From an uncultured Lentisphaerales bacterium (GTDB lineage Bacteria > Verrucomicrobiota > Lentisphaeria > JABSQK01 > UBA12247), in NCBI GenBank assembly GCA_943788985.1, contig CALSSJ010000005.1, positions 32,001-96,000 on the forward strand: DNA of 64,000 nucleotides, written 5' to 3'. The position numbers were made by a program, and so were the translations under genes. Below, one piece after another: positions 2,546-62,257 of this stretch. How positions within the stretch are numbered: position 1 is the first letter of the stretch; each line of letters opens with the position of its first letter. Below the pieces are notes generated by a model that had not been told where the DNA came from, did no database searches, and was given only the letters and a program-made list of their open reading frames with translations.

Positions 2546-5393
2546 GTGCCTTCTGCTTCCATCTCTTCCGACTCCGCGACCACCCCATCCTGGTATGGCG
2601 AATTAGCGCCGCCTCACTTTGTCCACCGCCATCTGGGGGTCGACGCCGATACCTGTCAAGGCATGCTCCAGACCCTCGGCCTCGAGTCCGCGCAGGATTT
2701 GGTCGATGAAATCGTACCTGGTCACCTCAAGCGCCGCAGCAAGCTCGACCTGCCAGCGCCTTGTACCGAAGAAGAGGCCCTAGCTGAGCTTTGGGAGATC
2801 GCAGACCGAAACGTGCGCACTCGCTGCTGGATCGGACAGGGCTTTTACGGCAGTCATCTGCCGCCCGTGCTGCTGCGAAACCTGCTCGAGAACCCCGGTT
2901 GGTACACCCAATACACGCCCTACCAGGCCGAGATTTCACAGGGCCGCCTCGAGCTGCTCTTTGCCTTTCAGACCCTGATCACCGAGCTCACCGGCCTCCC
3001 GGTCGCAAATGCTAGCCTGCTCGACGAAGCCAGCGCCGTTGGCGAGGGCGTTTCGCTCGCCTTTGGCCAGCTTCGCAGACGTCGGCGCACCGTCGTTGCG
3101 GACTGCGCACTGCATCCGCAATCCTTGGCCGTGCTTCGCACGCGGACCGAGGCACTTGGCATCACCCTGCTCGTGCAGGACGCCTTTAGCGCCGAGCTAC
3201 CGCAGGATGACCTGTGCGCCGTGGTCGTGCAGACGCCCGACACATTTGGCCGACTTCGTGACGGTCTCGCAGCACTTGCGGACTCCGCACATGCCGCCGG
3301 TGCCTTGGTGGTTGCCGCCGTCGACCCTCTCGCACAATGCCTGCTGCACACCCCCGCTTCGTGGGGCGCAGATATCGCCGTGGGCGTAACCCAGCGATTT
3401 GGCCTGCCCGTGGGCTTCGGCGGCCCACATGCCGGCTTCATCGCCGTCACTGACAAGCTCAAGCGCAAGCTTCCCGGCCGCATCGTCGGCCTATCCGTCG
3501 ATCGCAACGGCAAGCCCGCCTATCGCCTAGCGCTGCAGACCCGCGAGCAACACATCCGGCGCGAAACCGCCACCTCAAACATTTGTACTGCTCAGGTCCT
3601 CCCCGCACTGCTCGCTACTGCCTACGCCGCTTGGCACGGCCCGCAGGGCCTCAGACGCATCGCTCAACGCGTGCAGTCACTTACCGCTTGGCTACAAGCC
3701 TCCTTGCAGAAAGCGGGCATTGCCGTCGAAACCGACGCCGTCTTCGGCACGCTTACCGCCGAGGCACCAGCCGGACTCTTTGCTGCTGCGGACTCGGCAG
3801 GAATCAGCGTTCGCTCGCTCGCGGGTAGCCGCGTTGGCCTCAGCCTGGATGAAACCACCACCGTGGCCGACATCCACGCCATTCTGGGCCTGTTTGGCGC
3901 ATCAGCCTCCAGCCAGGTCCCTGCGAACCTCGCAACGCCGTGGCTGCGAACCAGCGAATTGCTGCCGCAAGAGGTCTTTGGCAGCTATCATAGCGAGCAC
4001 GAAATGCTGCGCTTTCTGACCCCGCCTGCAGCATCGCGATCTTTCCCTCGCGCAATCCATGATCCCGCTTGGCTCCTGCACCATGAAGCTCAATGCCGCT
4101 GCCGAGATGATCCCGCTGACCTGGCCCTCCATCGGCCAGATGCATCCCTACGTGCCAGCCACGCACGCTCGGGGCTATGCCGAGATCTGCACAGATCTCG
4201 AAAACTGGCTCTCCACCATCACCGAGCTGCCCGGCTGCAGCTTGCAGCCGAACGCTGGCTCCCAAGGCGAATATGCTGGCCTGATCGCTATTCGCGCCTA
4301 TCTGCAGGCGCAGGGCCAGGCTGGTCGCGATGTCTGCCTCATCCCGGCCTCGGCGCACGGCACCAACCCTGCCTCGGCGGTACTAGCCGGGTTCCGGGTC
4401 GTCACCGTCGCCTGTAGCGACAATGGCGACATCGACCTTCGCGACCTCCACCTGAAAGTAGCCGAGCACGCCGAGACTCTCGGTGCCCTCATGATCACCT
4501 ACCCGTCTACCCACGGCGTTTTTGAGGAAGCCGTAGCCGAGGTCTGCGCCATTGTTCATCAAGCAGGCGGCCAAGTCTATATGGATGGGGCGAACATGAA
4601 CGCCCAGGTTGGCCTTACCTCGCCCGGCGCGATCGGTGCCGATGTCTGCCATGTCAATCTGCACAAGACCTTCTGCATTCCTCACGGCGGCGGTGGTCCT
4701 GGCATGGGGCCTATTTGCGTCGTCGAGCATCTGTGTCCCTATCTGCCGACCGATCCGGCGTCAGCCATCGATCCGCCGATTGCGATCTCCGCAACCCACT
4801 ATGGCAGTGCCAGCATCCTGACCATATCTTGGATGTATGTCCGGATGATGGGGGCCTCTGGGCTCACCAGCGCCACGCGGGTGGCGTTGCTCAACGCCAA
4901 CTACATGGCGACCCGCCTGGCCGACCACTTTCCGGTCCTGTACACTGGGCGCAACGATCGCGTCGCCCACGAGTTCATTCTCGATCTGCGGCCCTTGCTC
5001 GGCGAAAGCGGTCTCACGGTCGAGGACGTCGCCAAGCGTCTGATGGACTACGGCTTTCATGCACCCACCGTCTCCTGGCCCGTGGCCGGCACCATCATGA
5101 TCGAACCGACCGAGAGCGAGTCACGAGAGGAACTGGATCGTTACTGCGAAGCGTTGATCGAGATAGCCAGCGAGCTCGACGCCATCCGTAGCGGCGCAAT
5201 CAGCGCCGCTGACAGCCCATTGCACTACGCGCCCCACACCCAGGCGGACCTGCTTGGCAGCTGGGATCGCGCCTACACACGAGAGCAGGCTGCCTTTCCG
5301 CTACCATGGGTTGCCGGTCGCAAATTCTGGCCATTTGTCGCCAGGATCGACAACGCCTATGGCGACCGCAATCTCGTCTGCGCTTGTAGCTGA
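2546..5393 (+). CDS. gcvP: Glycine dehydrogenase (glycine cleavage P protein), single-chain type, with a frameshift near 4020
   Basis: [50 protein letters not shown] and [16 protein letters not shown] motifs. Removing one C from the C-run at 4020-4023 restores [18 protein letters not shown]. Confidence 0.93.
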
Positions 5394-5591
5394 GCTGTTT
5401 AAAGCGCCAAATATGTCTCCGGAAACGCCCTCTGGCCCCCTCCAGAGCGCCGGGAATGACGCTGAACAGGGAGCCTGATATTCTTGCCATCTCGAGTGGA
5501 TGATCGAGCGTAGCCGATGGTAAAACGACCGGACTGGGAAAGCCCAACTATTACGCCCTGGAAGGGGGACAGAAGGAGGGTAAGCACCCAC

Positions 5592-6627: not shown

Positions 6628-7765
6628 TCAGCACCTGATAGGCGAACCCCAGGCCCCATCCGTCTGATAGGTCCTGACCACACGGTTGCCAAAGGAGCAG
6701 ATCACGTCGTAGGAGATGGTGCCGCGGGCTTCTGCCCATTCGGCGATCGGGATGTTCTCGCCGAGGCACTCGACTTCGTCGCCAGCCGTGGCTTCCGGTA
6801 GGGCGCTGACATCGACTGTGACGTAGTCCATTGAGACCCGGCCCAGCACAGGGCAGGGCACGCCGCGGATGATCACGCGGCCGCGGTTGGAAAGGGCGAT
6901 CGGGAAGCCATCGGCATAGCCGACGGCAGCGGTGCCGACCCTCGTGTCACGGGCCAAGGTGTGCGTGCAGCCATAGCCGATCGTGGCCCCGGCAGTCATT
7001 TCACGAACCTGGACTAAGCGTGTCTTTAGGGTCAGCACGGTCTCGATCGCGAGGCGGCGCTCGCCTGCGAGGTCGAAGGCGCCGTAGAGATTGATCCCAG
7101 TGCGGACCATGGTGAAGGGGGCATGGCATGACTTGGGCTGGTTGTTTACGCCATCGCTGTTGGCCATGTGCACGTGGTCGAAGCGGATTCCAGCGGCCGC
7201 CAGCTGCTGGAGCAGGGCCGTGAATTCGCGCACTTGTTGGCGGGAGCGTTGGGGATCGCCATAGGCATGGGGGAAATGTGAGTAGATGCCCTCGCAATGT
7301 AGGCCCGGTAGCCGATCGATGTCTTGGATTACGGCGAAGGCGGTGGCGATTGGTAGGCCCAGGCGGCCCATCCCGCTGTCCACCAGTATGTGGCAGGTAG
7401 CGGTGGTTGCTTGCGCGACCGCGGCGGCACTTAGCTCTTTTGCGATCTCCGCATCGCCGATGGGGGCGACCAGGCCACTGCGAACCGCAAGCGGCGCTTC
7501 ATCGGGTAGCAATGCGCCCAAGATGTGAACCGGGCGGTCAAGCTCGAGCAGTGGCAGTGCTTCGCGAACTTCGGCGACGCCAAAGCGGCTGGCGCCAGCC
7601 TTTGCGAGCGCGGCAGCGACGGGGCCACAGCCAATCCCCGTAGGCGTCTGCTTTGAGCACCGGCATGACGTGCAGCGGTGCCACGGTGCGGCAGATCGTG
7701 CGGTAGTTCCGCACCAGCGCCGTCAGGTTTACCTCTAACCAGACGCGTGGCGCGGCGTCGCTCAT
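6628..7765 (-). CDS. alr: Alanine racemase, frameshifted near 7635
   Basis: N-terminal VLKADAYG PLP-lysine motif in the 7538-7798 frame. DSGMGRLG, SHF, VGYADG and GRVSMD in the 6628-7521 frame. Start overlaps the upstream stop (ATGA). Confidence 0.9.
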
Positions 7766-8493: not shown

Positions 8494-9180
8494 TCAAAGG
8501 ACTAAGACCGGTCGGAATCCGAAATTAAGCAACCGCGTCGAGGGCTCTCGCGGATAGCGATTGTTGATGCGCAGATATTCTTTCTGACAGGTGGTCCACG
8601 ACCCACCGCGGAGTTCGCAACTGGTGCCGCCTGCCTGAAACGTCCATTCATAGACATTTCCGCCTACGCCCCAGAGGCCCCACTCGTTCGCGCCAGATTC
8701 CTCCACCGGGCAAGTCACCGTGGCATGATCGTCATAGCCAGCAATGTGCTCCCAGTCCCGGTACTTCCGGCGAGCGGTTTCATCCGCGTAATTTCCATAT
8801 ATCGGGGGCCATTCATCGCCCCAAGGAAATTCCTTCTGCTTACCGCAACTGGCAAACACTGTCCATTCTTGGTGAGATGGCAGGCGCAGGAACTGGCCAT
8901 TCTGGATGGCGTTTCTGTCGCGCAGTCGCTCGGTGAACCAGCCACAGTATGCCATTGCATCCTCGTAGCTCACCTGGACTACGGGTTGCCGGTCCCCGTT
9001 TAAAGTCTCTCCCTCGTATTCGCCGCTGTCATGCGCGGCGTTGAAGGCCCGATACTCAGCATTGGTCGTGACATGCTTGCCCACCCAAAACTCCAAGGCA
9101 GGGAGCCAGATAAACTCAACGTTCAAAACCGGGTCTTTCCAATTCTCGCCGCGTACGATGCGGGTGCTGTTCTTGGTCAT
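8494..9180 (-). CDS. Formylglycine-generating enzyme (SUMF1/FGE-sulfatase) family protein
   Basis: PVVQVSYEDAMAYC, RLPS..EW, NEWGL..VGGNVYEW, RGGSW and FGFR motifs. Confidence 0.85.
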   Translation of the reverse strand: MTKNSTRIVRGENWKDPVLNVEFIWLPALEFWVGKHVTTNAEYRAFNAAHDSGEYEGETLNGDRQPVVQVSYEDAMAYCGWFTERLRDRNAIQNGQFLRLPSHQEWTVFASCGKQKEFPWGDEWPPIYGNYADETARRKYRDWEHIAGYDDHATVTCPVEESGANEWGLWGVGGNVYEWTFQAGGTSCELRGGSWTTCQKEYLRINNRYPREPSTRLLNFGFRPVLVL

Positions 9181-9496: not shown

Positions 9497-10165
9497 CTAC
9501 TCGAGAAGGGAGCGGAATTCCTTGAACTCGGCCTGGAGGGCGGCGAGCTGGGACTCGAGGGTCTCGACGCGGTCGCTGAGGGCTTCGATGGCCTCCTGGC
9601 GGGCACGAACTGCGGTGGTTGCGGACTCCGCAACTGCGGCGGGGGCGACGGTGTCGATTTCAGGAGCGCCAGCGAGAAGGTGGGCGTGCCGAGGCTCTTT
9701 GCGCCCCGGTTGTACGAGCAGGGTCATCATGAGCGGCGGTTCGTTCTCGGCGAGCCGATGCACGGTGGCCTCGGCTTCGGTGGGGGAGGCAAAGGGGTGG
9801 AGTCTGGCGGTGCGGCCTTTGAGTTCGCCTGCGGTTTGCGGACCTCGCAACATGGCGACGCAAAGAACGGCTAGTTCGGCGTCGTCAAGGTCCAAGACGC
9901 GGGGCATGGTATGGGCGTATTTCGGCACGCGGCTTCCGGCGGTGGTGACTTGCTCGGCAAGCCCTTTGTGCCGCAAGCCATCGAGGGCCACTACGACGTC
10001 TTCGTCGGTGAAGTGCATGACCGGATCACGGTTCGACTTCTGGCTGGCCGCGGTGCTCAGAGCGTTGAGTGTGAGCGGATAGTAATCCGGGGTTGTGACC
10101 TGCTTCTCGATCAGGCAACCGAGCATGCGTACTTCATCGTGGGTAAGCTGTGAAAGTTCTGGCAT
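9497..10165 (-). CDS. YceH/DUF480 (UPF0502) family protein
   Basis: RMLGCLIEKQVTTPDYYPLTLNAL...QKSNRDPVM and LRGPQTAGEL motifs. Confidence 0.9.
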   Translation of the reverse strand: MPELSQLTHDEVRMLGCLIEKQVTTPDYYPLTLNALSTAASQKSNRDPVMHFTDEDVVVALDGLRHKGLAEQVTTAGSRVPKYAHTMPRVLDLDDAELAVLCVAMLRGPQTAGELKGRTARLHPFASPTEAEATVHRLAENEPPLMMTLLVQPGRKEPRHAHLLAGAPEIDTVAPAAVAESATTAVRARQEAIEALSDRVETLESQLAALQAEFKEFRSLLE

Positions 10166-11450: not shown

Positions 11451-11455
11451 TACTG

Positions 11456-13342: not shown

Positions 13343-16300
13343 ATACGCAAGTTAAGCTCCTACTTCTGGCGGTCTTGGTGGCTTGCCCGCTGTTTGGCGG
13401 GCTGCCCCATGCGGGCGACGACTTCGTGGTAGTCGATGAAGATTCCTCCGTCACCTTCAATCCACTGGGCAATGACTTCGATCTGGATGTGAGCACTCAA
13501 GATCCTTCGACTACTGTTTCGGAAGATGGCAGCCCGGCTGAGAGACTGACGATTACGAATTATCGTTCGCCACAGAACGGCTATGTCACCCGGACCGCCG
13601 AGATGCTTACCTATACGCCGATCGCAGATTTCAACGGGACGGATTTCTTCTACTACACGATTACCGACGGCAGCGGGCATTTTGACGTGGGCAAGGTCAC
13701 GGTGATCGTGCAGTCGCAAGGAGATGACGTGATCGCGATCAATGACAACGCGCAGTTGGCGGAGGACGCAACGGCCGTCATTGATGTACTGGCCAATGAC
13801 AATAATCCGGACGATGACGATCTGATCGTCGCGGGCTTTACGCAGCCGTCTGCCGGGACCGTAGAGCTGTTGAACGATCAGACCATGCGCTATACACCCG
13901 GTTTGGATTTCAACGGGCAGGATTCGTTCAGCTACGTGGTCCAGGATCCGGACGGAAACACGGACACGGGGACCGTGCTGCTGGTGGTCTCGGCCGTGAA
14001 TGACGCACCGCGCACCAGCGGGATTGCGAACATCGCAGCAAAGTCGAACGATCCAAACTTTACGATTGATCTGACTGACGTGTTTTCCGATCCTGAGGAC
14101 GGTCTCCCGAGCGTGGAACTGGTCGGCATCTCGAGCACTTCGGTGTTTGACAGTGTGCTGGTAAATGGTGAAGAGGCGTTGCCCGTGGGCGGCGGGCGAG
14201 TCCAAGACGGATCCGACAGCAATCCTGGCGCTTGGCCGTTTATGGCGGCGTTGGTGCAGGCAGATGCAACAATTGCTGCCGATGGCTTGTTCTGTGGTGG
14301 CGTCTTGATTCACCCGGAATGGGTATTGACGGCGGCCCACTGTCTGCCAGATACCAGCGCTGAAGACGTGCATGTGGTGCTGGGGCGCCACGACCTGCGT
14401 ACCGCGGGCGGCGAACGAATTCAAGCCGCCGAGCTGATCGTGCATCCTGGGTATAAGGATGATACGCTAGAGAACGATGTCGCGCTGATTCGTCTGACCC
14501 GCGCCTCGAACCAGCCTACGATTCGCATGACCGTCGAGGCGGAGGCCGCCCGGTTCGCACCGGGCGTGAGCGCCACAGTGGTGGGCTGGGGGATTACAGA
14601 CCCGGACGGCACCGAGGCGTCAGTGATTCAGCAACAGGCTGTGTTGCCGATCGTAGCGATCCAGACTGCGGCGGCCAGCGGGCTCGGCCCATTTACGGAC
14701 ACGATGCTCGCTGCTGGCTTCGCAGACAGTACGACTTCGCCGTGTCCCGGGGATAGCGGCGGTCCGCTGTTGGTCTCTGATGGGGCTGGTGGTGAACTGG
14801 TGGCTGGAATGATCAGCTTTGTCACACCCGGCTGCATCAACTACAGCGGCTATACGCGTGCAGCGAGCTTTGTGGACTGGGTGACGGCGCGCACTGGGAT
14901 TCAGATCGCGGCAAGCTCCCTGATCCTTAATTACAAGCCGGGCTCAAGTGGGACGTCGGTGATTACGCTGCGGGCGACCGATGCGCAAGGGCTGCATGCG
15001 GACACGAATTTCACTGTTGCGGTGACGCATGAAAACGATTTGCCGCTGTTGACATTACCGAGCCTTGCTATGGTCGAGGATGCCGGGGCCCAGTCTCTGT
15101 CGCTTTACTCGCTGGCAGCAGATCTAGAGGACGAGGATGAGGATTTGGCGTTCACGGTGGTGAGCGTCGCCAACGGCGATCTTTTCGCGACAGGACCGGA
15201 GATTACGGGCGAGCCTGACTTGCTGGCTTTTGAGACCGTGGAGAATGCATTCGGCAGCGCTGAGATTGTGGTGCGGGTGACCGATAGCGAGGCAGGCAGC
15301 ACGTCTGCGATTCTGGTGTTAAGTGTCAGCCCGGTGAACGACGCGCCCGAGGGCACGGCAGCAAGCTGGGCCGTTAATGCGGACGCCGGCTCGACGACGC
15401 TGGACCTGTTCAGTCTGGTCAGCGATCTAGAATCTGCCGATGACCAGCTGGATTTTGAGATTGTGGGGAACACCAATCCGGATGTGCTGAGCGGCATCCT
15501 GATCGACGGGAATCCGCGGCAACTGCTGCGCATCTCGCCAGCCACGAGCCTTGCGACTGGCGACCATGTGACCACGGTGACGGTGCGCGCTACGGATCCC
15601 GGTGGCTTGAGCAGTGACCTTGTGATCACAATTACGGTGACTCAGGATAATCACGCGCCGACAGTGGTCGATGATTTCGCGTTTGTGGACGAGGACACGA
15701 CGCTCGACTTGACCGTGATGGCCAACGACAGCGATAGCGATGGCGATTCGCTGACAATTCGCGCCTTCTCCCAGCCTACACAGGGCTCGGTGGTGCGTCG
15801 GGACAGCCAGACGCTGCAGTATCGACCGAATCGCGACGCGACCGGAAATGACGCCTTCACCTACACCGTGAGCGATGGCACCGATCTGGCGACGGCCACG
15901 GTGACGCTGACGATCGTGGCGCTGAATGATGCGCCGGACGCGTTTCCGATGTTTGTCGTGGTGCCCGAAGACGCCCAGCAGTTTGAGATCGATCCGTTTG
16001 AGAATGCCGAAGATCCGGATGGGGACGAGCTGCAACTGGTCGACCAGAGCACGCCCGAGAACGGGATTGTGGCCTTTGACGGTGCCAAGATTCTGTACAC
16101 GCCAAATGCGGACTTCGCCGGGACTGATTCGTTTGTCTTCACCGTTTCCGATCCTGCTGGAGCCGTGGCCTCTGCAGCGGTCATGGTGATTGTCGAAGGT
16201 GCACCCGATGCACCGGTTGCGGCGGCTGACTTCGTGGTGGTTCCAGAAGATCAGCAGACGCAAATAGACGTGTTGGCTAACGACCTAGATGTCGATATTG

Positions 16301-19300
16301 GTGACGTCCTGACGCTGGTCGATATCTCAGATCCGAATGGCGCTTCTGCTTGGATTCAGGAAGGGCAGATTACGTTTGAGCCGGTCGCCGACTTTACGGG
16401 GACGAGCCTGCTGACCTACACCGTTCATGACCGTGACGGGCTGACTGACTCTGGTGTCTTGACGGTTGAAGTGACGGCCCAGCCCGACGCGCCGGAGCTT
16501 GCGGACTCCGCAATTGCCACGGATGAGGACGTCACGCTGAGCGGTGTGCTCACCGCGGTAGACGCTGATGGCGACACGACCACACTCGAGCTGCTCACGC
16601 AGCCTGCTCTCGGCGTGCTAACCCTGGCGGCCGATGGCTCCTTTACCTTTACGCCTACTGCGGATGCGAATGGATCGGCAGTTGCTTTGGTGCGGGTCAC
16701 GGATGCCACGGGGCGCTCGAGTTCCTCGAACCTGACGATCGAGATCGCCCCGGTGAATGATGCGCCGGAGATCGCCTCCCGGCAGTTCAACGTGAATGAG
16801 GACGGGTCGCTTACCATCGAGCTGCTCGCCGGTGCCACCGATCCAGACGGCGACACGCCGATTCTTGGTGCGATCCAAACCTTCCCCGCCACGGGCTCAT
16901 TGACTCTAGCTGGGACACAGGCAACCTATTCTCCAAACGCCGACAGCACGGCTGACGACTCGTTCGTATATCAGATCATTGATGGCAACGGTGGCTCGAC
17001 AACCGCTGAAATCTCACTCACGGTGATCCCCCAAAACGATGCCCCCAAGGCGGCTGATGATGTCTTCGTGACCCAAGAGGACGTTGCGATCTCAGGAAAT
17101 GTGTTAACCAACGACAGCGACCCTGATTTGGATACCTTGACCGCCAGCGGCATAAGCGGCCCCGGGGCTGGGCAGATCACGCTGTTGCCCGACGGCAGTT
17201 TTACCTATGTTCCGGATCCGGATGCGACCGGCGCAGATAGCTTCACCTACGCAGCCTCCGACGGCGTATTGGCAACCACGGCTACGGTGACGGTTCTGGT
17301 TCACGGGGCTAATGACGATCCGACGACTCCGGTAACGCTCGCGGCTGTGACCGAAGAGGATACCCCGATCACGCTGGATCTGGTGGGCCCGATCAGTGAT
17401 GTCGATAACGATCCGGTGCGCGTGGTGCAGTTCATCAGCACGCCAGCGCTCGGCGGGCTCACAGCGGCTGGAACTGGCACCTATCTCTACACGCCAGCTG
17501 CGAATGTTTCTGGACCCGATTCGTTCAGATATCTGGTGGTGGATGGCCAGGGCGGCAGTCTGACGGTGACGATGGAGATCTCGATCACCCCGGTCGACGA
17601 TGCGCCTGTTGCCAACCCAGACGTCTACAGCGTGCAGGTTGGGAGCGTGCTGACCGTCTCGGCCCCCGGCGTGTTGAGCAATGACTCGGATGTCGACAGT
17701 AACACGCAAACTACCTCGCTGTTGGTTCCGGCTGCTAACGGCACGGTCACAGTCAGTGCCGAAGGCTCCTTCTCCTACCAGTCTGACGTGGTCGGTAGCG
17801 ACAGTTTTACCTACCAAGTAAGTGGCGGCATTTCCAGCGCGATCGGCTTGGTCACGATCACCGTAACCGCGGAGCCGGTGGTCGCGCCGGTTGCGAACTC
17901 CGCAACCTACACTGTGGCTGAGGATGAGTCTGTGAGTGCCGAACTCACGACCGCTGCGGTCTCCGCAAGTATTATCGCAGCCCCGTCGCGCGGCACAGTG
18001 ACGCTGGTCGATCGTACCTTCAGCTATGTCCCTGACGGCGATGAAAATGGCAGCGACAGCTTTGTGTTTGTGCTGGACAATGGCTCTGCGACTGCGAGCG
18101 GCACCATTACGATTGAGATTCAGCCGGTCAACGATGACCCGGTACTGGACCGGAATGTGCCGGTGTTCACGGCCGAGGATACGGCGGTGGTGATTGATCT
18201 GCTGGAAGATGTGAGTGATGCGGACGGTGATGTGTTGTTCGTGGGTGAGATCACCGCGCCAAGCTCGGGGACGTTGTCTGGGCTATCGGGCAGCAGTGTG
18301 ACCTTTACCCCGCAGTCTGACTTTTCTGGAGATGTCGAGCTGGCACACACAGTCGTAGACGGCGCGGGTGGTTCCGTGGCGATCACGCGCACGATTCGCG
18401 TGCAACCGACAAATGACCGGCCGATCGCCGAGGCGGATCAGTACAGCATTGCCTTTGGCCACGTGCTGGAGGTGCGCGTGCAGGATGGCGTGCTGCTGAA
18501 TGATTTCGACGGGGAAGGCCAGCCGCTGACTGTGGATCCGCTAACGGGCCCAGAGAACGGCAGTCTGACACTGAATGCCGGTGGCGCCTTTACCTATGTG
18601 CCAGCGGTGACATTTTTCGGCGAGGATTCATTCACTTACCGAGTGGGCGATGGCGAGGCCTTCTCGAATAGCGGTGTGGTTAGTCTGTCGGTCGAGATCG
18701 ACTCGTTGGCAGGTGACTTCGATAGCAGTGGTGCTGCGGACGAGGAAGATGTAAACGCGTTGCTGTTGGCGTTTGGTACAAACAATCTGTTGTATGACCT
18801 GGTCCAAGATGGGATCATCGACTTCCGTGATCTGACGGTTCTGGTAAGCCTGGTCGAGCAGGGTGGGGCCCGCTACCTGGCGCATCCGTATCCTGCGGGA
18901 ATTGAGCTGGCACTGCTGGCGCCGCATCAGGTGGCTCCGAACGAAGTGTTCTCGGTAAACATTCTGATGCGAGATGCAAGCGGTGCTTACGGCGTGCGCG
19001 GCGGCGCTCTAGATTTGCATGTGGCGAACGCGACGCCAATCGGGTTTCACCCGACGACCGCGGTTTCTGCGGAGTTCGCGCAGCTGGCTACGCATGGGCA
19101 GGTCACGCCTTGGGGCATCTCCGGGCTCGGTGGGGTGACGCTGGCGCATGGCGTCGGTACGGCTGCACCTGCGACATTTGCCACGGTTGAGTTCCAGGCT
19201 CCGGCGACGCCTGGGACGGTGAGCGTGGGACTGGGGCTTGGAAACTGGCACCTCGGCCTGGGAGCTCCTGCCGGGCTGCAAGCGATCGGCAATATTGGGA

Positions 19301-20239: not shown

Positions 20240-20251
20240 GGGAGCCGACTG

Positions 20252-25806: not shown

Positions 25807-25946
25807 GGCGGATTCTCGTTTGTTGTGGGTGCGTGTCAACACCCTCCGACGGCCCGTCATCGCACTTTATTCAACGTTTTTGGCGCTTTGCTCCCTTCGC
25901 TGCGCTCGGGCTCTGCCTGCGGCGGTGCGAACTTCGCAAATTTCGG

Positions 25947-42901: not shown

Positions 42902-42915
<14 letters not shown>
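41398..42915 (+). CDS. GT-C fold membrane glycosyltransferase (PMT/ArnT-like)
   Basis: LWFDE motif after the first TM, LRVPS and QMRGY motifs, many TM helices. Confidence 0.7.
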
Positions 42916-44070
<1,155 letters not shown>

Positions 44071-44074
<4 letters not shown>

Positions 44075-45511: not shown

Positions 45512-46385
45512 GATTCTGCTGACCGGCGCCAACGGGCAACTCGGCTGGGAGCTGCGCCGCCTCATGACTGCAGACCAGTGCGTGGCATTTACATCCGCGG
45601 AGCTGGACATTACGGACGAGGCTGCGGTCGCCGCCATGGTCGCCGCCGTGGCACCTCGCGTGATTATAAACGCAGCGGCATACACAAACGTGGACGGGGC
45701 GGAGTCTGATGCAGAGGCCGCTAAACGCGTAAATACGAACGGGCCAGAGTATCTCGCCTGTGCCGCCGCGCGCATCAATGCCTTGCTCATTCACGTCTCC
45801 ACAGACTTCGTGTTCAACGGCGATGGCATCAGGCCGCTGCGCCCAGACGATCCGGTCGCCCCTCAGGGCGTATACGCGAGGACCAAACTGGACGGTGAGC
45901 GCCGCGTCCGTGAGTCCGGCGCGCGCTATGTCATTCTGCGTACGGCTTGGGTCTACAGCACACATGGTCGAAACTTCGTCAAGACCATGCTGCGCCTTGG
46001 CGCTGAGCGGGAGCAGCTGCGCGTGGTGGCTGATCAGCTAGGCTCGCCCACCTATGCCGCGGATCTAGCAGCAGCAATCCTGGGCGTTGCGGAGTTCGCA
46101 AATCCGCCATCAGGCGTCTGGCACTGCACCAATTCTGGGCAGGCCAGCTGGTGCGAGTTTGCCCAGGAGATCATACGGCTAGGCGGCAAGCAGCAGCCAC
46201 TAAAGGTGCGCTCGGTCGAGCCAATCTCCAGCTCGGCCTATCCGACTCCAGCAGTTCGTCCCACATATTCTGTCCTGGACTGTGCCAGCCTGGCAGCAGA
46301 TTTTGGGGTAATCATGAGACCATGGCAGGAAGCTCTCGAGGCAGCGTTCTCTTGTCAGGATGAGCCGTTTGCGAACTCGGCATAG
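45504..46385 (+). CDS. rmlD: dTDP-4-dehydrorhamnose reductase
   Basis: TGANGQLG, NAAAYTNVD.AE, STDFVF, YARTK and DQLGSPT motifs. Confidence 0.95.
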   Translation: MAEILLTGANGQLGWELRRLMTADQCVAFTSAELDITDEAAVAAMVAAVAPRVIINAAAYTNVDGAESDAEAAKRVNTNGPEYLACAAARINALLIHVSTDFVFNGDGIRPLRPDDPVAPQGVYARTKLDGERRVRESGARYVILRTAWVYSTHGRNFVKTMLRLGAEREQLRVVADQLGSPTYAADLAAAILGVAEFANPPSGVWHCTNSGQASWCEFAQEIIRLGGKQQPLKVRSVEPISSSAYPTPAVRPTYSVLDCASLAADFGVIMRPWQEALEAAFSCQDEPFANSA

Positions 46386-47217
46386 CGTCGAAATATCGGT
46401 CGTTATCCCGACGTTCAACCGTGCCCAGACATTGGGCCGTGCCCTGAAGTCGGTGCTGACCCAGGATGAGCCCGCGGATGAGCTTATCGTGGTGGACGAT
46501 GGCAGTACCGATGAGACCGCCGTGCTGCTGGCGCAGGAGTATCCGCAGGTGAGGGTGATTCGGCAAGAGAATCAAGGCGTGAGCGCGGCCCGAAACACTG
46601 GGATTGGGGCTGCGGCCCACCCTTGGCTCGCCTTCTTGGATTCCGATGATGAGTGGCTGCCGAGTAAGCTGGCGGTGCAACGTCGTGCGCTTGCGGAGCA
46701 CCCGGAGCTACGGTTCTGCCATGCCGACGAGATTTGGATCCGGAACGGAAAACGGGTAAACCCGATGAAAAAGCACGCGAAACAAGGCGGCTGGATTTAC
46801 GATCAGTGCTTGGCCCTGTGCTGCATCTCTCCGTCGGCTGTGGTGATGCACCGTAGTATTTTCGAAGAAGTCGGGTTGTTTGACGTCTCCTTGCCAGCAG
46901 CGGAGGACTACGATCTCTGGCTGCGGCTGTGCGCCAGATACGAAGTCTTGTTTGTGAGTGAGAAATTGCTGACCCGCTATGGCGGGCATCAAGATCAGCT
47001 GTCGCAGAAGTATTGGGGCATGGATCGGTTCCGCGTGGTGGCGCTTAGCAAGATGTTGCGGAGTTCGCAACTCCCGGAAACACAGCGCTGCGCGACGGTG
47101 GAGATGCTGTGTAGGAAGCTGCGGGTGTTAAACAATGGTGCCCGTAAGCGTGAGAACTGTGAGTTGGCGTCTGAGTGCCGGAAAATGGCAGCTGAGTTTG
47201 GCATTTCACTTGCGTAG
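46360..47217 (+). CDS. Family 2 glycosyltransferase
   Basis: SVVIPTFNR, VVDDGSTD, NQGVSAARN, FLDSDD and EDYDLWLR motifs. Confidence 0.92.
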   Translation: MSRLRTRHSVEISVVIPTFNRAQTLGRALKSVLTQDEPADELIVVDDGSTDETAVLLAQEYPQVRVIRQENQGVSAARNTGIGAAAHPWLAFLDSDDEWLPSKLAVQRRALAEHPELRFCHADEIWIRNGKRVNPMKKHAKQGGWIYDQCLALCCISPSAVVMHRSIFEEVGLFDVSLPAAEDYDLWLRLCARYEVLFVSEKLLTRYGGHQDQLSQKYWGMDRFRVVALSKMLRSSQLPETQRCATVEMLCRKLRVLNNGARKRENCELASECRKMAAEFGISLA

Positions 47218-51155: not shown

Positions 51156-51495
51156 GAGATAAAGACGAAACAGATCTTCGGAAAACTACTGACGATTCTC
51201 GGGTTCAAGCGAAAGAAGCCGACGGCCAAGCCCGGACGCATTGCACGTTGCTGTGAGCATTACACCTTCCCATCCGCTATCGTATCAACATTAGGGGAAA
51301 AGGAATTTCCTATCAGTTAGTGGCAGGCGGGCCTCGAGGCTTACCGCCATACTGGCGGGGTCAACTTTTACCAGAATGTCGTCGGGCAGATACTGACGGG
51401 CGTCCCAGGCCATCATGTTGCGGATGGGGTCGTCTGTGAGCGCTTCCAAGCCCCGAAACTGGGCGTTGCGAACTCCGCAAATCAGTTATCAGTTG

Positions 51496-52782: not shown

Positions 52783-54326
52783 CAGCGCCAGTTCCGCGAG
52801 GCGGCTTCGTAGTAACTCAAGACCGCTGGCCGATCGAGGGTCGAGATGTTCACTTCGATTTTCGCAGTATCGGCCGGAAAACTCAGGCCAGCCTGAAAGG
52901 TGGCGGCGTTCAGAAATTTCACGGGGACCGTCGGCGCATAGTTCTGTGGTTCAAGAGGTGCTTTGGCGGCCAGGACGAACCCCCAGTTGCCGAAGGAGGG
53001 CACTTGAACGTGGAACGGGGTGACCGCCAGGCCAGTCTGACGGATGGTCTCGACAATCGACCAGTAGGCGTGACGGGCAAAGAACGGCGACGTGGCCTGC
53101 ACTGCGATCACGCCGCCCGGCGCCAGACGCCGCTGCAGGAGCTGGTAGAATACGCCGCTGTAGAGTTTGCAGAGCGCTTCGTTGCGGGGATCGGGAAGAT
53201 CACTGAGAATGACGTCATAGTACTCGTTGGTCTCGGCGACATGGTTAAAGGCATCGGCGTTGATGATGGTGACACGCGGGGCTGACAGCGCGTTGTCGTT
53301 TGCCTCGCGAAGCAGATGATGGTCCTGGCCGAGGCGGGTCACGGCGGGGTCGATGTCTACCAGGGTGATCGCTTGGACCGTCTCGTGCTTGAGCACTTGG
53401 CGGACAGCCAGGCCGTCGCCGCCGCCAAGAATGAGGACGCGGCGCGGGCTGGTTGCCAGTGACATGGCCGGATGAACGAGCGCCTCGTGGTAGCGATATT
53501 CATCGAGCAGACTGAATTGGAGCGAGCCATCCAGGAATAGGCGCAGGTCGTTTTTGTAGCGGGTCATGATGATTTTCTGGTACGACGTCTGCTCTGAGTA
53601 GACGATGCGGTCGCTATAGAGGTTGCGCTCGTAGAAGCTGCTGAGACTACTGGCGCGCACCAGGCCTGCGATGAGCAGAACGGCCGCAATTCCAACCAAG
53701 CAGATTGAGCGGCGCCAAGAGGGCAGGCGATCGCGAAACACCGCGACCACCGCACCGGCAACCAGTAGATTCAACAGGCCCGTAGCAAAGGCAGTGCCCA
53801 ACAGTCCGAGCACCGGCAGCAGCACCAGGGGAAACAGCAGTGAGCCGATGAGCGCGCCGAGGTAGTCGACGCTGAGGATGTGGGCAAGGTGATCTTTGAG
53901 CGGGCCTCGCTCGCTGACCAGGCGCGTGAGCAGTGGAATCTCAAGTCCCATGCAGCCGCCAATGATCAGAATGGCTGCGAACATCGCAATGTAAAAGTAG
54001 CTGGTAAAGGCGAAGATACCCATCAGCAAAGCGGCGGCACCGCCGCCGCAGATACCGGTCACGACTTCGACCGTGACGAAGACCCCCAGCACGTCCCGTT
54101 GCACAAAGCGCGACAGGTAGCTGCCGACCCCCATCGCGAAGAGGAACGAGCCGATCGTGATCGAGAAGTGGGTGACGCTGCTCCCCAGTAGATAGGAGGA
54201 AAGCGTCCCGATGATCAGCTCATAGACCAACCCGCAGATCGAGATGACCCACACTGAGACCAGCAACAGCGAAATTTGGCGTCGACTCAGGGGCTCTGGT
54301 TTGGGAGTCTCTGACGGGGTGCTCAT
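52782..54326 (-). CDS. speE: Membrane-fused polyamine aminopropyltransferase (spermidine synthase-like)
   Basis: N-terminal multi-TM domain (GLVYEL, GLEIPLL, DYLG), then DEYRYHEALVHP, LILGGGDG and DLPDP. Confidence 0.9.
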   Translation of the reverse strand: MSTPSETPKPEPLSRRQISLLLVSVWVISICGLVYELIIGTLSSYLLGSSVTHFSITIGSFLFAMGVGSYLSRFVQRDVLGVFVTVEVVTGICGGGAAALLMGIFAFTSYFYIAMFAAILIIGGCMGLEIPLLTRLVSERGPLKDHLAHILSVDYLGALIGSLLFPLVLLPVLGLLGTAFATGLLNLLVAGAVVAVFRDRLPSWRRSICLVGIAAVLLIAGLVRASSLSSFYERNLYSDRIVYSEQTSYQKIIMTRYKNDLRLFLDGSLQFSLLDEYRYHEALVHPAMSLATSPRRVLILGGGDGLAVRQVLKHETVQAITLVDIDPAVTRLGQDHHLLREANDNALSAPRVTIINADAFNHVAETNEYYDVILSDLPDPRNEALCKLYSGVFYQLLQRRLAPGGVIAVQATSPFFARHAYWSIVETIRQTGLAVTPFHVQVPSFGNWGFVLAAKAPLEPQNYAPTVPVKFLNAATFQAGLSFPADTAKIEVNISTLDRPAVLSYYEAASRNWR

Positions 54327-57069: not shown

Positions 57070-57143
57070 TGGAGCGGGTAGAGGGAATCGAACCCTCACA
57101 ACCAGCTTGGAAGGCTGGGGCTCTACCGTTGAGCTACACCCGC
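57070..57143 (-). tRNA. tRNA-Gly(TCC)
   Basis: Minus strand GCGGGTGTAGCTCAACGGTAGAGC...cTTCCAAg...GGTTCGATTCC...CCCGCTCCA; cloverleaf with encoded CCA. Confidence 0.97.
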
Positions 57144-57282: not shown

Positions 57283-58389
57283 ATGTCCAGACAAATCCTG
57301 ATGATAAGCTTCCTCCTTGCAGCCTTTGCTGTGGGCGCCGCAGAAATGACGCTGGAAGGCATTGCGGGGAAATGGAAGCTGCAGCAGCAGAAGCCGTCAA
57401 AAGCCCAGCTTTGGATTGAACAGCAGCGTCTACAGGGCGGCTCTGAGGAGTACTTGCAACAGTTGCAGGCACGGATCGAGGTGATCGAAGGGCAACTGAC
57501 GCGTGATGCAGAGATTATTGAGATCCAGGGCACGGAGCTGACGGTGCATCGGTTCGATAGCGCGTTTCGCTTTCCGATGAAGGAAAGCCGCCGTTTCTTC
57601 CTGCAGGAAAACGCGATGGTTTTTGCCGATGGTGGGCCGAAGCGGCTGGTGAAACTGGGCAAGACCACCATGCTGCACGTGGTCGATGCGGACTCCGCAA
57701 CCAAGACACCAAAGATTCGCTACCTGTATCGTCGCGTAGCAGGGGAGCAGCCACCTGCCCCTGAGCCGAAGCCGCAGGTTATGCCCGTCCCCGAGCCAGT
57801 TGCCGTCCCCGAGCCCGAGCCGGAACCAGTGGTATTGCCGGAGCCGATCGCTCCAGAAGACCTGAGCTTGCCGCCGGTGAAAGAAGAGTTTCAGATTCTT
57901 GCGGATGCGCCACCGGCGTTCGAAGTGCCCCCAGCCATTGTGGATGATCCGCTGCCAGATGCGGCGATCCCGAATGTGCCCGCTCAAGATGACTTTGAGC
58001 TCCCAGATCCCTTGGCCGAGCTGCCGCCGCCGGAGCCACTGGCAATCGATCGCCCAGAACCCGCAGCGCCGCCAGCCACCGCGAAAGAGCGCGAGTCCTG
58101 GACTCGCAAATCAATCAGCGCGATGGCCGAGTCGGAGTTTCCTGATGACATCGGCCTGCACTGGGAAGTGATCAACTTCTCCGAACGCGATGGCTACTCC
58201 TTTGTCGAGGTGGCACCACGTCCAGCTGTCATGTCGTATGACCGGTTCGTGTTTGCGATTTCGTTTGCCGTTGGTGTGCCGAAGAGTCCAGCTGCCACCT
58301 ACGCGTTCGAAGCAGGTGCCTACTCGCTGCTGAGCACCGCACCCAATGTAGAGGACGGGGCATTCCCCGATATCCTGCGTCTCTGGTAG
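57283..58389 (+). CDS. Exported hypothetical protein with Pro/Glu-rich linker
   Basis: Signal peptide and two globular regions joined by a PEPEP-rich spacer. Confidence 0.7.
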   Translation: MSRQILMISFLLAAFAVGAAEMTLEGIAGKWKLQQQKPSKAQLWIEQQRLQGGSEEYLQQLQARIEVIEGQLTRDAEIIEIQGTELTVHRFDSAFRFPMKESRRFFLQENAMVFADGGPKRLVKLGKTTMLHVVDADSATKTPKIRYLYRRVAGEQPPAPEPKPQVMPVPEPVAVPEPEPEPVVLPEPIAPEDLSLPPVKEEFQILADAPPAFEVPPAIVDDPLPDAAIPNVPAQDDFELPDPLAELPPPEPLAIDRPEPAAPPATAKERESWTRKSISAMAESEFPDDIGLHWEVINFSERDGYSFVEVAPRPAVMSYDRFVFAISFAVGVPKSPAATYAFEAGAYSLLSTAPNVEDGAFPDILRLW

Positions 58390-59818: not shown

Positions 59819-60413
59819 GTACCGTCACCGTATGAATCGGGCTTTCTGGGCGATCCGCGTCGCAGACTTGGATGCAAAACCTACCGTTAGGGAGTGCCTG
59901 CCGCTCGGTGCGCACTTGCACGTGGGCAAGTCGCCATCCGGGGCCACTGCCGCTGTCCTTTTGCGGAGTCAGCAACACGATCACCACCTGATGGCGTTTT
60001 GCGGAGTCCGCAAGCCGTTTTGCCGGGGCTACGGCCAGGTGCTGATCACACTCCACAATCAGCGTGCTGAAGGCTCCAGAGCAGGCCAGGGTCTCGGTCG
60101 CTTGCAGCCGGGCCAGCGGCTCGTCAAGCATCACAAATGGCAACGCCGCCGGGTCGATCCCCCAGCGGTAGAGATCAGGCGGATGCACGCCCGAAGCGGC
60201 TGGTCGAATCCAGGCGCAGAATTGATGGGCCTGCTGCGTCTCGGTGACCAACTCGGCCGCGAGCGCATAGGCAGCGGAGTGGCCACCCCAGCTTAGTTGC
60301 ACCAGGCTGCCGCACAGTGCCTTAAGTGTCCACGTGACGGCACGCGACGGCAGCTCGCTGGCCCGTCGCAGGCTGTTATGTGGCAGCAAACGCTGTAATT
60401 CGGCAATGTCCAC
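59796..60413 (-). CDS. imuA: ImuA-like (RecA-fold) mutagenesis protein
   Basis: Degenerate RecA-like pattern (CAWI...PPDL..WGID...SGAF...RL..AK) directly upstream of imuB. Confidence 0.7.
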   Translation of the reverse strand: MDIAELQRLLPHNSLRRASELPSRAVTWTLKALCGSLVQLSWGGHSAAYALAAELVTETQQAHQFCAWIRPAASGVHPPDLYRWGIDPAALPFVMLDEPLARLQATETLACSGAFSTLIVECDQHLAVAPAKRLADSAKRHQVVIVLLTPQKDSGSGPGWRLAHVQVRTERQALPNGRFCIQVCDADRPESPIHTVTVHGSTGLH

Positions 60414-60538
60414 ACGGACCCCTACGGTATTTAGTTTATACGAAATAATATTAGCATATCAGCAGCATTGCAAGCTCCTTCCGCGCGAACGACTACAGTT
60501 CTCGGATTCTGTTGAATTCACCCCTGCCTGAACAGACC

Positions 60539-62257
60539 ATGGCGAAACGTCGCAGCCGCACAAAACGAAAGACTATCGGCACCGAAGCCGAAGCGCCGGA
60601 CTGGCTTGTCGCCGGTCAGATTGCGCTGGGCTGTCTGCTGCTCTACAGCATGACGCTGTGGTTTGGGTTTTCGCCACTGGATGATTTTGACCTGATCGCG
60701 CGGCGGCTGGAGGATCTTGGGAACTGGGCCAATCTCGGGGATTCGTTCACAAATTCGATTTTCACCAAGGCGTATTATCGGCCGTTGCTGACCTTATCCT
60801 TTCGCTTTGATGCGATTGTGGGTGGGGGTAGTACCGCGATGTTTCACTTTACGAACGTCGTCCTGCACGGGGTCTGCATGGGCTTGCTCTATGCCGCATT
60901 GGTTTCGTTTGGCTTGAGCCGCAAGGCGGCGTTGCTGTGGACGGCCCTGGCGGCAGCACACCCTATTCATGTACATGCCGTGGCCTGGATTCCAGGACGA
61001 AACGACACGATGCAGGCCGCGCTGGCGCTCGGCCTCTGGCTGACTCTGAATCACTGGCGGAACAAGGGGCATGATGCGTGGCTGGTTCCGCACTTCATCC
61101 TCTTCGTGCTGGCGTTGCTGACCAAGGAAAGCGCGATTCTGCTGCCGTTTCTGCTGTTGGCTGCGGACTGGCTGGTGCATCGCGATAAACAGTCGCTGCC
61201 GTACGTGAAACTTGTGGTCGGCTGGACCGTGCTGATCGTGCTCTGGCTGCGAATGCGTGGGGCGTACGCGACGGATCCGAATTTTCAATGGGAGCTGCTG
61301 GATAAAATGCAGCTGATTCTGGCCACCCTCGAGGCATTTACGGTCTACATCGGCAAGTACTTTCTACCGTTCAACCTCGGCATCATGCCCTATCCGCAGG
61401 ATCAAACGCTGATCTTTGGTATGATCGCGATCGTGGTGCTGGCGCTGCTGCTTTGGCGTTGCGGAGTTCGCAACTGGCTGGTGGTGGGATTTGGTGTGAT
61501 CTGGGTGGGCGGGACGTTGCTGTTACCGACGGTGTCGGGGGCCTTGGGCACGACGACCGGGGGAGACATGGAGCATCGCATGTACCTGGGGACGTTGGGC
61601 ATGATCCTTATTCTGACCCAACTGAAACTGCCCGAGACCATTTCAGAGAAGCTGGTCCCGCAGGTGGCTGTAGGAGTGGCGGTATCATTTGCCATTCTGT
61701 CACTGGTGCGCATGCCCGTGTATCGCACGCAGCTGAGTTTTGCGGACTCCGCAGTCCAGACCTCGCCGGGCACGTACTTCACCTATCTGATCCGGGGGCG
61801 GGTGCATCGTCGGGAAGGCCGTCGAGAGGAGGCGCTGGGGGACTTTGAAAAGGCCGTTTCGTTATCGAAGGGCTCGGCTAGCATCTACCTGAGTATGGGC
61901 TTGCTGCACACGGAGATGAAACAGCTGGATAAGGCCATGGACGTTTACACGCGCGGGATCCAGGCGGATGCCAGACAGCAGGGAGACCACATCGTGCATT
62001 CTCTGAACGGCTGTCGGCTGGCCTTGAACCGTGGATCGCTCCACTTCCAGGCTGGAGATTATGACAAGGCCTTTGCGGACTATCAGCTTGTGGTGAGCAG
62101 CTGGCAGGATTGTGGTCCGGCCTGGTTCGGGATGGGGCTGGTGCATCAGATGCGCAAGGAAGATGCGAAAGCGCTGAAGCTCTATCGTCACGCGGCTGCA
62201 CTGGGCGATGAGTCCGCGCAGAAGAAGCTCGCCTCCATGCGGATCGTTCCGAAGTGA
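60539..62257 (+). CDS. TMTC-like GT-C glycosyltransferase with C-terminal TPR repeats
   Basis: LDD acidic loop, YYRPL, FHFTNVVLH, HP.HV.AVAWI.GR, KESA and HRMYL motifs, then TPRs. Confidence 0.8.
   Translation: MAKRRSRTKRKTIGTEAEAPDWLVAGQIALGCLLLYSMTLWFGFSPLDDFDLIARRLEDLGNWANLGDSFTNSIFTKAYYRPLLTLSFRFDAIVGGGSTAMFHFTNVVLHGVCMGLLYAALVSFGLSRKAALLWTALAAAHPIHVHAVAWIPGRNDTMQAALALGLWLTLNHWRNKGHDAWLVPHFILFVLALLTKESAILLPFLLLAADWLVHRDKQSLPYVKLVVGWTVLIVLWLRMRGAYATDPNFQWELLDKMQLILATLEAFTVYIGKYFLPFNLGIMPYPQDQTLIFGMIAIVVLALLLWRCGVRNWLVVGFGVIWVGGTLLLPTVSGALGTTTGGDMEHRMYLGTLGMILILTQLKLPETISEKLVPQVAVGVAVSFAILSLVRMPVYRTQLSFADSAVQTSPGTYFTYLIRGRVHRREGRREEALGDFEKAVSLSKGSASIYLSMGLLHTEMKQLDKAMDVYTRGIQADARQQGDHIVHSLNGCRLALNRGSLHFQAGDYDKAFADYQLVVSSWQDCGPAWFGMGLVHQMRKEDAKALKLYRHAAALGDESAQKKLASMRIVPK

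Follow-up and report, generated by a model that had tools for sequence, protein, structure and literature searches.

Why should the same 15-bp palindrome be written again and again into the coding sequence of unrelated bacterial genes? The question is raised by a 64-kb stretch of DNA (GenBank assembly GCA_943788985.1, contig CALSSJ010000005.1, positions 32,001 to 96,000), here called the window and numbered from its first base. An earlier reading made from the letters and the open reading frames (ORFs) alone, below the sequence-only reading, had noticed many copies of a word with the arms TTGCG and CGCAA, and had attributed them to selection on DNA, exerted either by a dimeric chromosome-organizing or nucleoid-occlusion protein or through an uptake or recombination signal. 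We find that the word comes close to saturating the coding positions that can hold it, by a force that acts on double-stranded DNA and that costs the genes rare codons and altered peptides. It is probably a lineage-specific, dispersed, and hyper-abundant word of the class that includes the highly iterated palindrome HIP1 of cyanobacteria and the uptake signal sequences (USS), read as a dimer site.

Abundance and Distribution of the Palindrome

A scan with the pattern TTGCGRASTYCGCAA returned 12 perfect matches in the window, a density of ~190 per Mb, with cumulative counts of 21, 31, and 44 at up to one, two, and three mismatches; the near-matches thus comprise 9 one-mismatch and 10 two-mismatch copies. 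Every one of the 12 perfect and 8 one-mismatch copies that the sequence-only reading listed is present at its coordinate. Among the seven that it classed as weaker, six (2088, 3096, 7440, 8606, 17954, and 46369) do carry two mismatches, whereas the copy at 9836 carries just one, and the list omitted further two-mismatch copies at 3921, 14024, 43827, and 53975.

None of 100 dinucleotide-preserving shuffles of the window contained a perfect copy, and the arm pair TTGCG-N5-CGCAA, which occurs 16 times, averaged 0.11 in such shuffles. A stricter comparison, which the sequence-only reading had itself proposed, preserves codons and amino acids. We combined the ORF list with Pfam hits into 36 gene models, covering 86.7% of the window, and shuffled synonymous codons within each gene for 2000 rounds, keeping the proteins and the per-gene codon usage. 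The shuffles gave means of 1.02, 2.28, and 4.01 copies at up to zero, one, and two mismatches, against 12, 21, and 31 observed. The residual of ~1.0 at zero mismatches is the fixed non-coding copy at 51466; for the coding perfect copies the comparison is 11 against ~0.02 per shuffle, a strong excess within the 64 kb. The earlier caveat that the motif had been defined after being seen is lifted by unbiased counting, in which sub-words of the motif are the top k-mers of the window throughout k = 9 to 13. When inverted arms of 5 nt are paired at gaps of 3 to 7 nt, TTGCG with N5 ranks first (16 occurrences), followed by its own nested sub-words, with unrelated arms reaching at most 4. Because the word ranks first in such counts, its post hoc definition is no longer a worry. 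Outside the window, 80 unrelated bacterial loci (1,245,520 bases in the neighbourhoods of distant RmlD homologues from other phyla, at most 49% identical; 25 of them, or 354,666 bases, above 55% G+C) contained no perfect and no one-mismatch copy.

Position along the window is compatible with uniformity (Kolmogorov-Smirnov p = 0.17 when only the 12 perfect copies are taken and 0.58 when all 21 with at most one mismatch are). The largest gap, 19.7 kb from 21170 to 40907, has P = 0.16, and copies extend to both ends with no cluster boundary visible in 64 kb. They lie, as had been reported, in unrelated genes on both strands and in three frames across the 36 gene models. Non-coding DNA holds one of the 12 perfect copies, against 1.6 expected. 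The two copies that had been placed outside genes (25925 and 51466) are indeed non-coding, with the refinement that both fall between convergent gene ends. These two lie just 3' of stop codons, yet no T-run is visible next to either, and a terminator role for them was rejected.

A Force on DNA That Overrides Codons and Peptides

The proteins of the 36 genes permit a perfect copy by codon choice at just 12 positions, and 11 of these are occupied; the twelfth, at 19619, is one synonymous change short of the word. The coding copies with one or two mismatches are almost all held back by the protein, since 17 of the 18 could be perfected only through an amino-acid change. The word's codons are disfavoured (GTT and CTT each supply 13%, and GCA and TCC each 18%, of their own codon families), such that the probability of the motif codons given the peptide is ~0.001. 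Its imprint extends to the peptides: the hexapeptide [ILVF]-A-[DNE]-[SF]-A-[IMTNKSR] is present at 9 places, compared with 0.25 per amino-acid shuffle, a ~36-fold excess, and all nine occurrences are encoded by the word. The only Rfam matches in the window, a tRNA and a glycine riboswitch, overlap no copy. It is the DNA that the force acts on, and neither the protein nor the RNA; the synonymous shuffles, the hexapeptide enrichment, and the occupation of 11 of 12 open positions bear out the earlier claim of selection on DNA rather than protein.

The reading frames first given for the copies proved correct for all 19 coding copies with at most one mismatch, of which 14 read x-A-[DNE]-[SF]-A-x, four are of the L-R-x-x-Q type, and one reads C-G-V-R-N. 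The preference for the A-x-x-A frame (14 of 19) may reflect a peptide that is the cheapest for proteins to accommodate.

Anatomy of the Word

The enriched unit is the whole 15-bp palindrome, of 7-1-7 form, TTGCGRA-S-TYCGCAA. Across the 21 copies with at most one mismatch, positions 2-5 (TGCG) are invariant save in one half-site, and the most variation is tolerated at position 1; of the 24 half-sites of the perfect copies, 15 have G and 9 have A at position 6. The two half-sites appear to choose G or A independently, with GG, AG, and AA states at 4, 7, and 1 against ~4.7, 5.6, and 1.7 expected under independence. The 12 perfect copies show no polarity of the Chi or KOPS type: the word is a palindrome, on the + strand its central base is as often C (6) as G (6), and the hemi-symmetric copies divide 4:3 between the two orientations. 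Arm spacings of N3, N4, and N6 are absent from the window, compared with 16 at N5, and TTGCGRA half-sites standing alone show no excess, with 20 found outside copies and 23.9 ± 4.0 in shuffles. Beyond the 15 bases the flanks are unconserved, except that G is slightly favoured at -1 (12 of 24 symmetrized flanks). As a single strand the word folds into a small hairpin, with a DNA folding energy of -4.1 to -5.3 kcal/mol.

Since only the full palindrome is enriched, and at a single spacing, the whole 7-1-7 palindrome is the unit that is recognized or propagated. These features point to a putative reader that binds duplex DNA as a symmetric dimer, and the full inverted repeat at one exact spacing, with its independent half-sites, supports the dimer-like reading first offered for the motif. 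We envisage a homodimeric, sequence-specific DNA-binding protein in which each subunit would contact one TTGCGRA half-site. Operators of the CRP/FNR type can take the form TTGCG-N4-CGCAA, and we considered and rejected this identity, as the spacing is wrong and N4 has no copy in the window.

Placement of Copies within Proteins

Homologue alignments cover two of the 11 coding perfect copies, those in RmlD and in the M20 peptidase. The RmlD site, V-A-E-F-A-N, occupies residues 200-205, where a helix end enters a length-variable loop; in an 81-sequence alignment the site adds no residues, and the loop of the window protein is among the shortest. At the M20 site the LVAESAI of the window protein corresponds to QVTQNAL in a 60%-identical relative and to RGACDGA in remoter homologues, and here too the length is unchanged. 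Measured over 6-residue windows, the RmlD and M20 sites fall at the 11th and 26th conservation percentiles. Together with six candidate sites in a second lineage, described below, all eight lie between the 9th and 47th percentiles, below the median. From the constant length and the tolerant positions it follows that the copies are substitutions and not 15-bp insertions, and on these alignments they appear to arise by point substitution where proteins tolerate change.

Occurrence in Other Lineages

The contents of the window resemble those of the Planctomycetes-Verrucomicrobia-Chlamydiae (PVC) group (DUF1559, DUF1573, and sulfatases), and two unexplained proteins, encoded at 41398-42915 and 47273-48925, have their nearest atlas clusters in Lentisphaerota, Verrucomicrobiota, and Planctomycetota. 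On these two grounds the PVC origin suggested earlier is plausible. The organism is thinly sampled: 9 public sequences on 26 contigs cluster with its M20 protein at 100% identity, one relative reaches 60%, and all others stay below 50%. Compared with plasmids, the DUF1559 protein gave no tblastn match, and megablast of positions 40000-64000 picked up nothing beyond similarity to rfbA (72-74%), in Azospirillum among others.

We followed the word into other lineages with a peptide proxy, defined as the fewest motif mismatches reachable by any synonymous coding of a protein in any frame (an exact back-translation score). The window proteome (36 genes) contains 6.5 perfect-compatible positions per 10,000 aa. 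The corresponding values are 0.00 both for 80 RmlD homologues whose DNA is free of the word and for 148 DUF1559 representatives (38,849 aa), 0.26 for 40 matches to the giant protein (192,530 aa), and 0.14 for 188 M20 homologues (74,060 aa) lying outside one clade. That clade, of four M20 homologues (P0005, P0008, P0010, and P0023; 1,523 aa in all), reaches 46 per 10,000 aa. Its members, each of ~380 aa, share 83-84% identity with one another and 47-48% with the window protein, and each has 4-6 compatible positions at up to one mismatch, in the peptides LADSAI, ICEPRN, LCELRN, DAEFAR, [AV]AEFAT, and [LIV]AESAA. All of these positions differ from the M20 site of the window and lie at the 9th-47th conservation percentile. 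Because the four proteins are homologous, the positions amount to about six events, not 22.

In a tree of 109 M20 sequences, the window protein pairs with its 60% relative at a Shimodaira-Hasegawa-like approximate likelihood-ratio (SH-aLRT) support of 100. The clade is placed elsewhere, inside a group with support of 95, and the starred branches force at least two label changes. The sole labelled member of the clade is a Rhodothermales metagenome-assembled genome (MAG) according to NCBI, an order in the Fibrobacteres-Chlorobi-Bacteroidetes (FCB) group. The peptide proxy thus suggests that the word recurs in a second lineage, not sister to the first, and that the nearest relatives lack it, a placement that draws on one gene family (M20), on MAG labels that are fallible, and on a gene tree, which is not a species tree. 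If the M20 gene of the clade is typical of its own genomes, the density of the word there would be several-fold above that of the window. The peptide IAESAT in the 60% relative (P0002) was considered as an independent gain and rejected: one occurrence compares with 1.24 expected by chance over the 188 family members, and it lies in a conserved, consensus-like segment at the 70th percentile.

One way to arrive at such a pattern, which we think unlikely and offer as speculation, is that the word entered two unrelated lineages independently, its reader or driver being a horizontally mobile determinant that recodes recipient genomes. Candidates for such a portable determinant would be an uptake receptor, a methyltransferase/repair module, or another sequence-specific DNA-binding system. 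We know of no described portable system that overwrites protein-coding sequence.

Relation to Known Hyper-Abundant Words

USS of Pasteurellaceae and the DNA uptake sequences (DUS) of Neisseriaceae are asymmetric words that occur about once per kb, often in inverted pairs acting as terminators; the present word differs in being itself a palindrome. It resembles USS and DUS in being dispersed, mostly intragenic, and accompanied by many one-off copies, as described by Findlay & Redfield 2009 (PMC2817400), who report that uptake sequences in coding regions favour certain frames, raise the frequencies of the peptides that they encode, and lie preferentially at poorly conserved residues. The word shows the same three traits, with 14 of 19 coding copies in one frame, the hexapeptide at 9 against 0.25, and 8 of 8 sites below median conservation. 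Its peptide effect, at ~36-fold, is much larger than the roughly 2-fold of USS and DUS.

HIP1 (GCGATCGC) is 8-10 bp long, whereas the present word spans 15 bp, two of its positions being degenerate and its centre free, and is neither GCGATCGC nor a derivative of it. The two are alike as over-represented palindromes in and between genes with an alanine-rich reading (here GCG...GCA), lineage variants, and a debated function (Elhai 2015, PMC4390886; Xu et al. 2018, PMC5861425). An over-representation of 15- to 300-fold or more, which marks highly iterated palindromes, is found for the present word within one 64-kb window, although its density of ~190 perfect copies per Mb lies below the 300-2700 copies per Mb that PMC4390886 gives for HIP1. 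Unlike HIP1, the word embeds no methyltransferase site in all of its copies, resides in a PVC-type host and not a cyanobacterium, and has an apparently narrow and patchy range. Published reports describe rare alternative highly iterated palindromes besides HIP1 (PMC4390886), the over-representation of HIP1 (Xu 2018, PMC5861425), a transformation-enhancing role for it (Kamoku & Nielsen, bioRxiv 10.1101/2024.09.10.611283), and again a proposed role in transformation (Rodriguez-Cruz et al. 2026, PMC13756078).

Six exact variants of the word gave no occurrence in the literature searched, outside which lie subscription journals and supplements, where an earlier oligomer survey could list it. The same literature held no report of HIP1 or highly iterated palindromes in planctomycetes, only work on gene-strand bias for uptake sequences, planctomycetes, and palindromes together, and nothing relevant by title or abstract among surveys of abundant oligonucleotides that include Verrucomicrobia. 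The earlier impression that the motif matches none recognized therefore stands, and we file the word as a new member of the HIP/USS class, its sequence having no described precedent in the literature searched.

Hyper-abundant words (Chi, USS/DUS, and HIP1) are few, and each has raised the question of how genomes mark themselves; the function of HIP1 is still debated after 30 years. In PVC-type lineages neither natural transformation nor words of this kind are reported in the literature searched. A 15-mer is long enough for chance copies to be negligible, which makes it an unusually clean handle on its reader, and this one can be seen to prevail over both the choice of codons and the amino-acid sequence. 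It could also be used as a lineage marker, both for binning and for detecting recently acquired DNA.

Favoured Explanation and Its Rivals

The explanation that we favour overall, at a probability of roughly 0.4, is a word of the HIP1/USS class with a symmetric reader, spread by directional drive and used as a tag of the cell's own DNA. The directional force would be a molecular drive operating through biased DNA uptake, recombination, or repair, not selection for a fixed number of spaced sites, and the most likely role of the word would be to label "own" DNA during uptake or recombination. An uptake or recombination tag as the specific mechanism is a tentative proposal, somewhat short of even odds. 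The second option of the sequence-only proposal fits in so far as the word behaves like words of the USS/DUS and HIP1 type. Drive is somewhat favoured over spaced-site selection because the free positions are filled and because near-misses blocked by the protein are enriched; such saturation, with its cloud of blocked near-misses, would be predicted by drive and would not be required by selection for spaced sites.

Several observations weigh against this explanation. The evidence is 64 kb long, with genome-wide spread assumed, and 12 copies can neither separate even from random spacing nor reveal enrichment in non-coding DNA. The known USS and DUS are asymmetric, whereas this word is palindromic. 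The window contains no gene of the comEA, comEC, or dprA type, no methyltransferase, and no candidate reader that we could find, and has only a type IV pilus/type II secretion system (T2SS)-like cluster to offer. The giant protein has two full-length orthologues (48% and 42% identity; together 9,196 aa) in which no compatible peptide occurs, against ~4.5 expected at the density of the window, and the M20 site of the window is missing from the relative at 60% identity. The DUF1559 set likewise contains no compatible peptide among its 148 representatives (38,849 aa), which would mean that most such lineages are without the word and has no bearing on genome-wide spread in the source. By the peptide proxy, the range of the word looks narrow and patchy, and USS/DUS and HIP1 are distributed family- to phylum-wide. 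Finally, the frames of USS track preferred codons according to PMC2817400, and the present word forces rare ones.

The rival that survives best, possible but in our view unlikely, holds that the copies are abundant sites for a nucleoid-associated or chromosome-structuring homodimer, kept by positive selection as argued for HIP1 (Xu et al. 2018). A dimeric binder fits the whole palindrome, its fixed spacing, and its independent half-sites, and this account also accords with copies spread evenly over the 64 kb, on either strand and in every frame. A lineage-specific protein would make the narrow phylogenetic range easier to explain, and for HIP1 a role in the structure of the chromosome or nucleoid has been put forward (PMC5861425). 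A given density of sites would not, however, require that 11 of 12 open positions be filled or that blocked near-misses be enriched, and no candidate protein was found in the window. The data separate this account from the own-DNA tag weakly.

A bias in repair linked to a methyltransferase would also produce saturation, being directional. In this proposal, made by Elhai for HIP1, an orphan enzyme sees a sub-site and mismatch or short-patch repair converts near-matches into the word. The centre GASTC, a subset of GANTC, is present in 4 of the 12 perfect copies, and according to PMC4390886 highly iterated palindromes co-occur with methyltransferases that recognize internal sub-sites. Yet GANTC is missing from the other 8 of the 12, as R and Y vary; the invariant part of the word is the outer TGCG/CGCA and not the centre, and the window has no methyltransferase gene that we could find. 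Known repair biases, moreover, shift 4- to 6-mers modestly, not 15-mers by orders of magnitude, and we regard this origin as improbable.

The sequence-only reading had looked first to organizing or occlusion sites of the matS, SBS, NBS, and ram type, and these, together with divergent parS, could make the window a sample of a regional cluster of centromere-like or macrodomain sites. The likeness is real in that matS/MatP, SBS/SlmA, NBS/Noc, ram/RacA, and parS/ParB all pair palindromic sites of 12-16 bp with a dimeric reader and are, like this ~15-bp palindrome, tolerated within genes; parS clusters, for their part, can be dense. The matS, SBS, NBS, and ram systems are regionally restricted and use tens of sites per genome, so that the present word appears, within this window, too dense for them: its 21 copies with at most one mismatch in 64 kb near the whole-genome number of such systems, and unlike their sites they are evenly spread, show no boundary or cluster edge in 64 kb, and saturate the synonymous opportunities. 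The canonical parS consensus has no match in the window with up to three mismatches, and none of 38 window ORFs matches a ParA/ParB family or other partition gene. In the second lineage, the peptide proxy would place ~5 candidate sites in one 1.15-kb gene. The organizing or occlusion analogy is thus not supported, and we consider a regional cluster very improbable.

Scarcely credible is the idea that the copies are in-frame insertions of a miniature mobile element, or footprints of one, in the manner of Rickettsia palindromic elements (RPE), miniature inverted-repeat transposable elements (MITE), or repetitive extragenic palindromes (REP). Its attractions are that 15 bp make five whole codons and that the word can form a small hairpin; REPs and bacterial interspersed mosaic elements (BIME), served by RAYT transposases, and RPEs are likewise dispersed repeated palindromes, and RPEs lie in frame within genes. 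Such elements are, however, longer insertions with conserved flanks, whereas the present word is a bare 15-mer apparently made by substitution: nothing is conserved past 15 bases, all three frames are used, and no length is added at the RmlD and M20 sites, the two that can be aligned. In the second lineage, C-E-L-R-N retains the L-R of its own family, as would be expected of substitution at a pre-existing near-match. Chance, assembly artefact, and selection on a peptide or RNA motif, for which nothing spoke but the post hoc definition of the motif, are refuted as far as the window allows by the shuffles and the de novo k-mer ranking, by copies in frame in intact genes and a site-bearing M20 protein that is public at 100% identity (9 sequences, 26 contigs), and by the use of both strands, of three frames with three different peptides, and of non-coding DNA, without Rfam overlap.

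Individual Copies and Their Genes

Along the window, the perfect copies begin with TTGCGGACTCCGCAA at 9619..9633, in a minus-strand DUF480 gene (V-A-E-S-A-T). Two lie in the gene of a 2269-aa trypsin/Ig-repeat protein, at 16499..16513 (L-A-D-S-A-I) and 17891..17905 (V-A-N-S-A-T). The copy at 21170..21184 in a PilM-like gene (L-R-S-S-Q) is the sole A/A pair of half-sites. Close to the 3' end of the gene for a 4093-aa protein is the copy at 40907..40921 (V-A-N-S-A-N), followed 99 bp later, with unrelated flanks, by that at 41006..41020 (F-A-N-S-A-I). The M20 peptidase gene carries a copy at 43359..43373 (V-A-E-S-A-I), a substitution in a variable segment; rmlD carries one at 46087..46101 (V-A-E-F-A-N), and a family-2 glycosyltransferase (GT2) gene one at 47056..47070 (L-R-S-S-Q). 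The non-coding perfect copy, 51466..51480, lies between convergent ORFs, 15 nt past the stop of the minus-strand ORF 51496-52317. The last two are at 59999..60013, in a minus-strand imuA-like gene (L-A-D-S-A-K), and at 61459..61473, the sole example of the C-G-V-R-N frame, in the gene for a 581-aa TPR protein.

Among the one-mismatch copies, only that at 19619..19633 in the 2269-aa protein (F-A-D-S-A-T; central base T) could be perfected synonymously. The glycine-cleavage genes hold one each: 3276..3290 in gcvPA (position 15; L-A-D-S-A-H), where perfection needs an amino-acid change, and 4780..4794 in gcvPB (position 7; I-A-I-S-A-T). The latter is protein-blocked, as are those at 9836..9850 in the DUF480 gene (L-R-G-P-Q), 33566..33580 in the 4093-aa protein (position 1; N-A-E-F-A-S), 57686..57700 in a 368-aa ORF (position 1; D-A-D-S-A-T), 59961..59975 in imuA (L-L-T-P-Q), which starts 38 bp ahead of the 59999 copy, and 61740..61754 in the TPR protein (position 15; F-A-D-S-A-V). 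The non-coding one, 25925..25939 (position 1), lies 7 nt past the stop of a C-terminal fragment of a TonB-dependent receptor (25947-26471, minus).

Copies with two mismatches occur in a sulfatase gene (2088..2102), twice in gcvPA (3096..3110 and 3921..3935), in alr (7440..7454), in a gene with an FGE-sulfatase domain (8606..8620), twice in the 2269-aa protein gene (14024..14038 and 17954..17968), in M20 (43827..43841, arms intact, centre GGGGC), at the rmlD/GT2 junction (46369..46383), and in a gene with a spermidine-synthase domain (53975..53989).

Other features of the genes and RNAs in the window deserve brief mention. The glycine riboswitch aptamer (2358-2447, + strand; 65.9 bits) lies immediately upstream of the split gcvPA/gcvPB pair, and the tRNA is at 57073-57143 (minus). 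The type IV pilus/T2SS-like cluster spans 11216-25375 and includes a secretin, the PilM-like protein, and a GspE/PilB ATPase, with the gene for the 2269-aa protein, which combines trypsin with Ig/cadherin repeats, seated between secretin and pilM. The imuA-like gene, bearer of two copies of the word, forms a pair with an imuB-like gene at 58397-60413 (minus), with no adjacent dnaE2. The product of 7762-8463 (minus), in which DUF2726 is fused to a topoisomerase-I-type zinc ribbon, may act on DNA.

Some genes appear incomplete. The alanine racemase ORF (6628-7521, minus) lacks about the first 77 profile positions of the N-terminal domain. The receptor fragment at 25947-26471 comprises the C-terminal ~170 residues (profile positions 457-610 of 614), and upstream of it lies the 590-aa ORF at 27016-28788 (minus), which has no family match; the two may be pieces of one broken receptor gene. 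The glucose-1-phosphate thymidylyltransferase gene rmlA (44044-44960, + strand) is split by a frameshift, with the N-terminal 133 aa in 44044-44445 and the C-terminal part in 44256-44960, pointing to a pseudogene or an assembly indel; its DNA aligns unbroken to rfbA of plasmid records. The rml and GT2 genes are flanked by two large + strand ORFs, 41398-42915 and 47273-48925, that have no Pfam or NCBIfam match, and the product of the former resembles membrane glycosyltransferases of the GT39/PMT_2 type by atlas features (32% of one nearby cluster).

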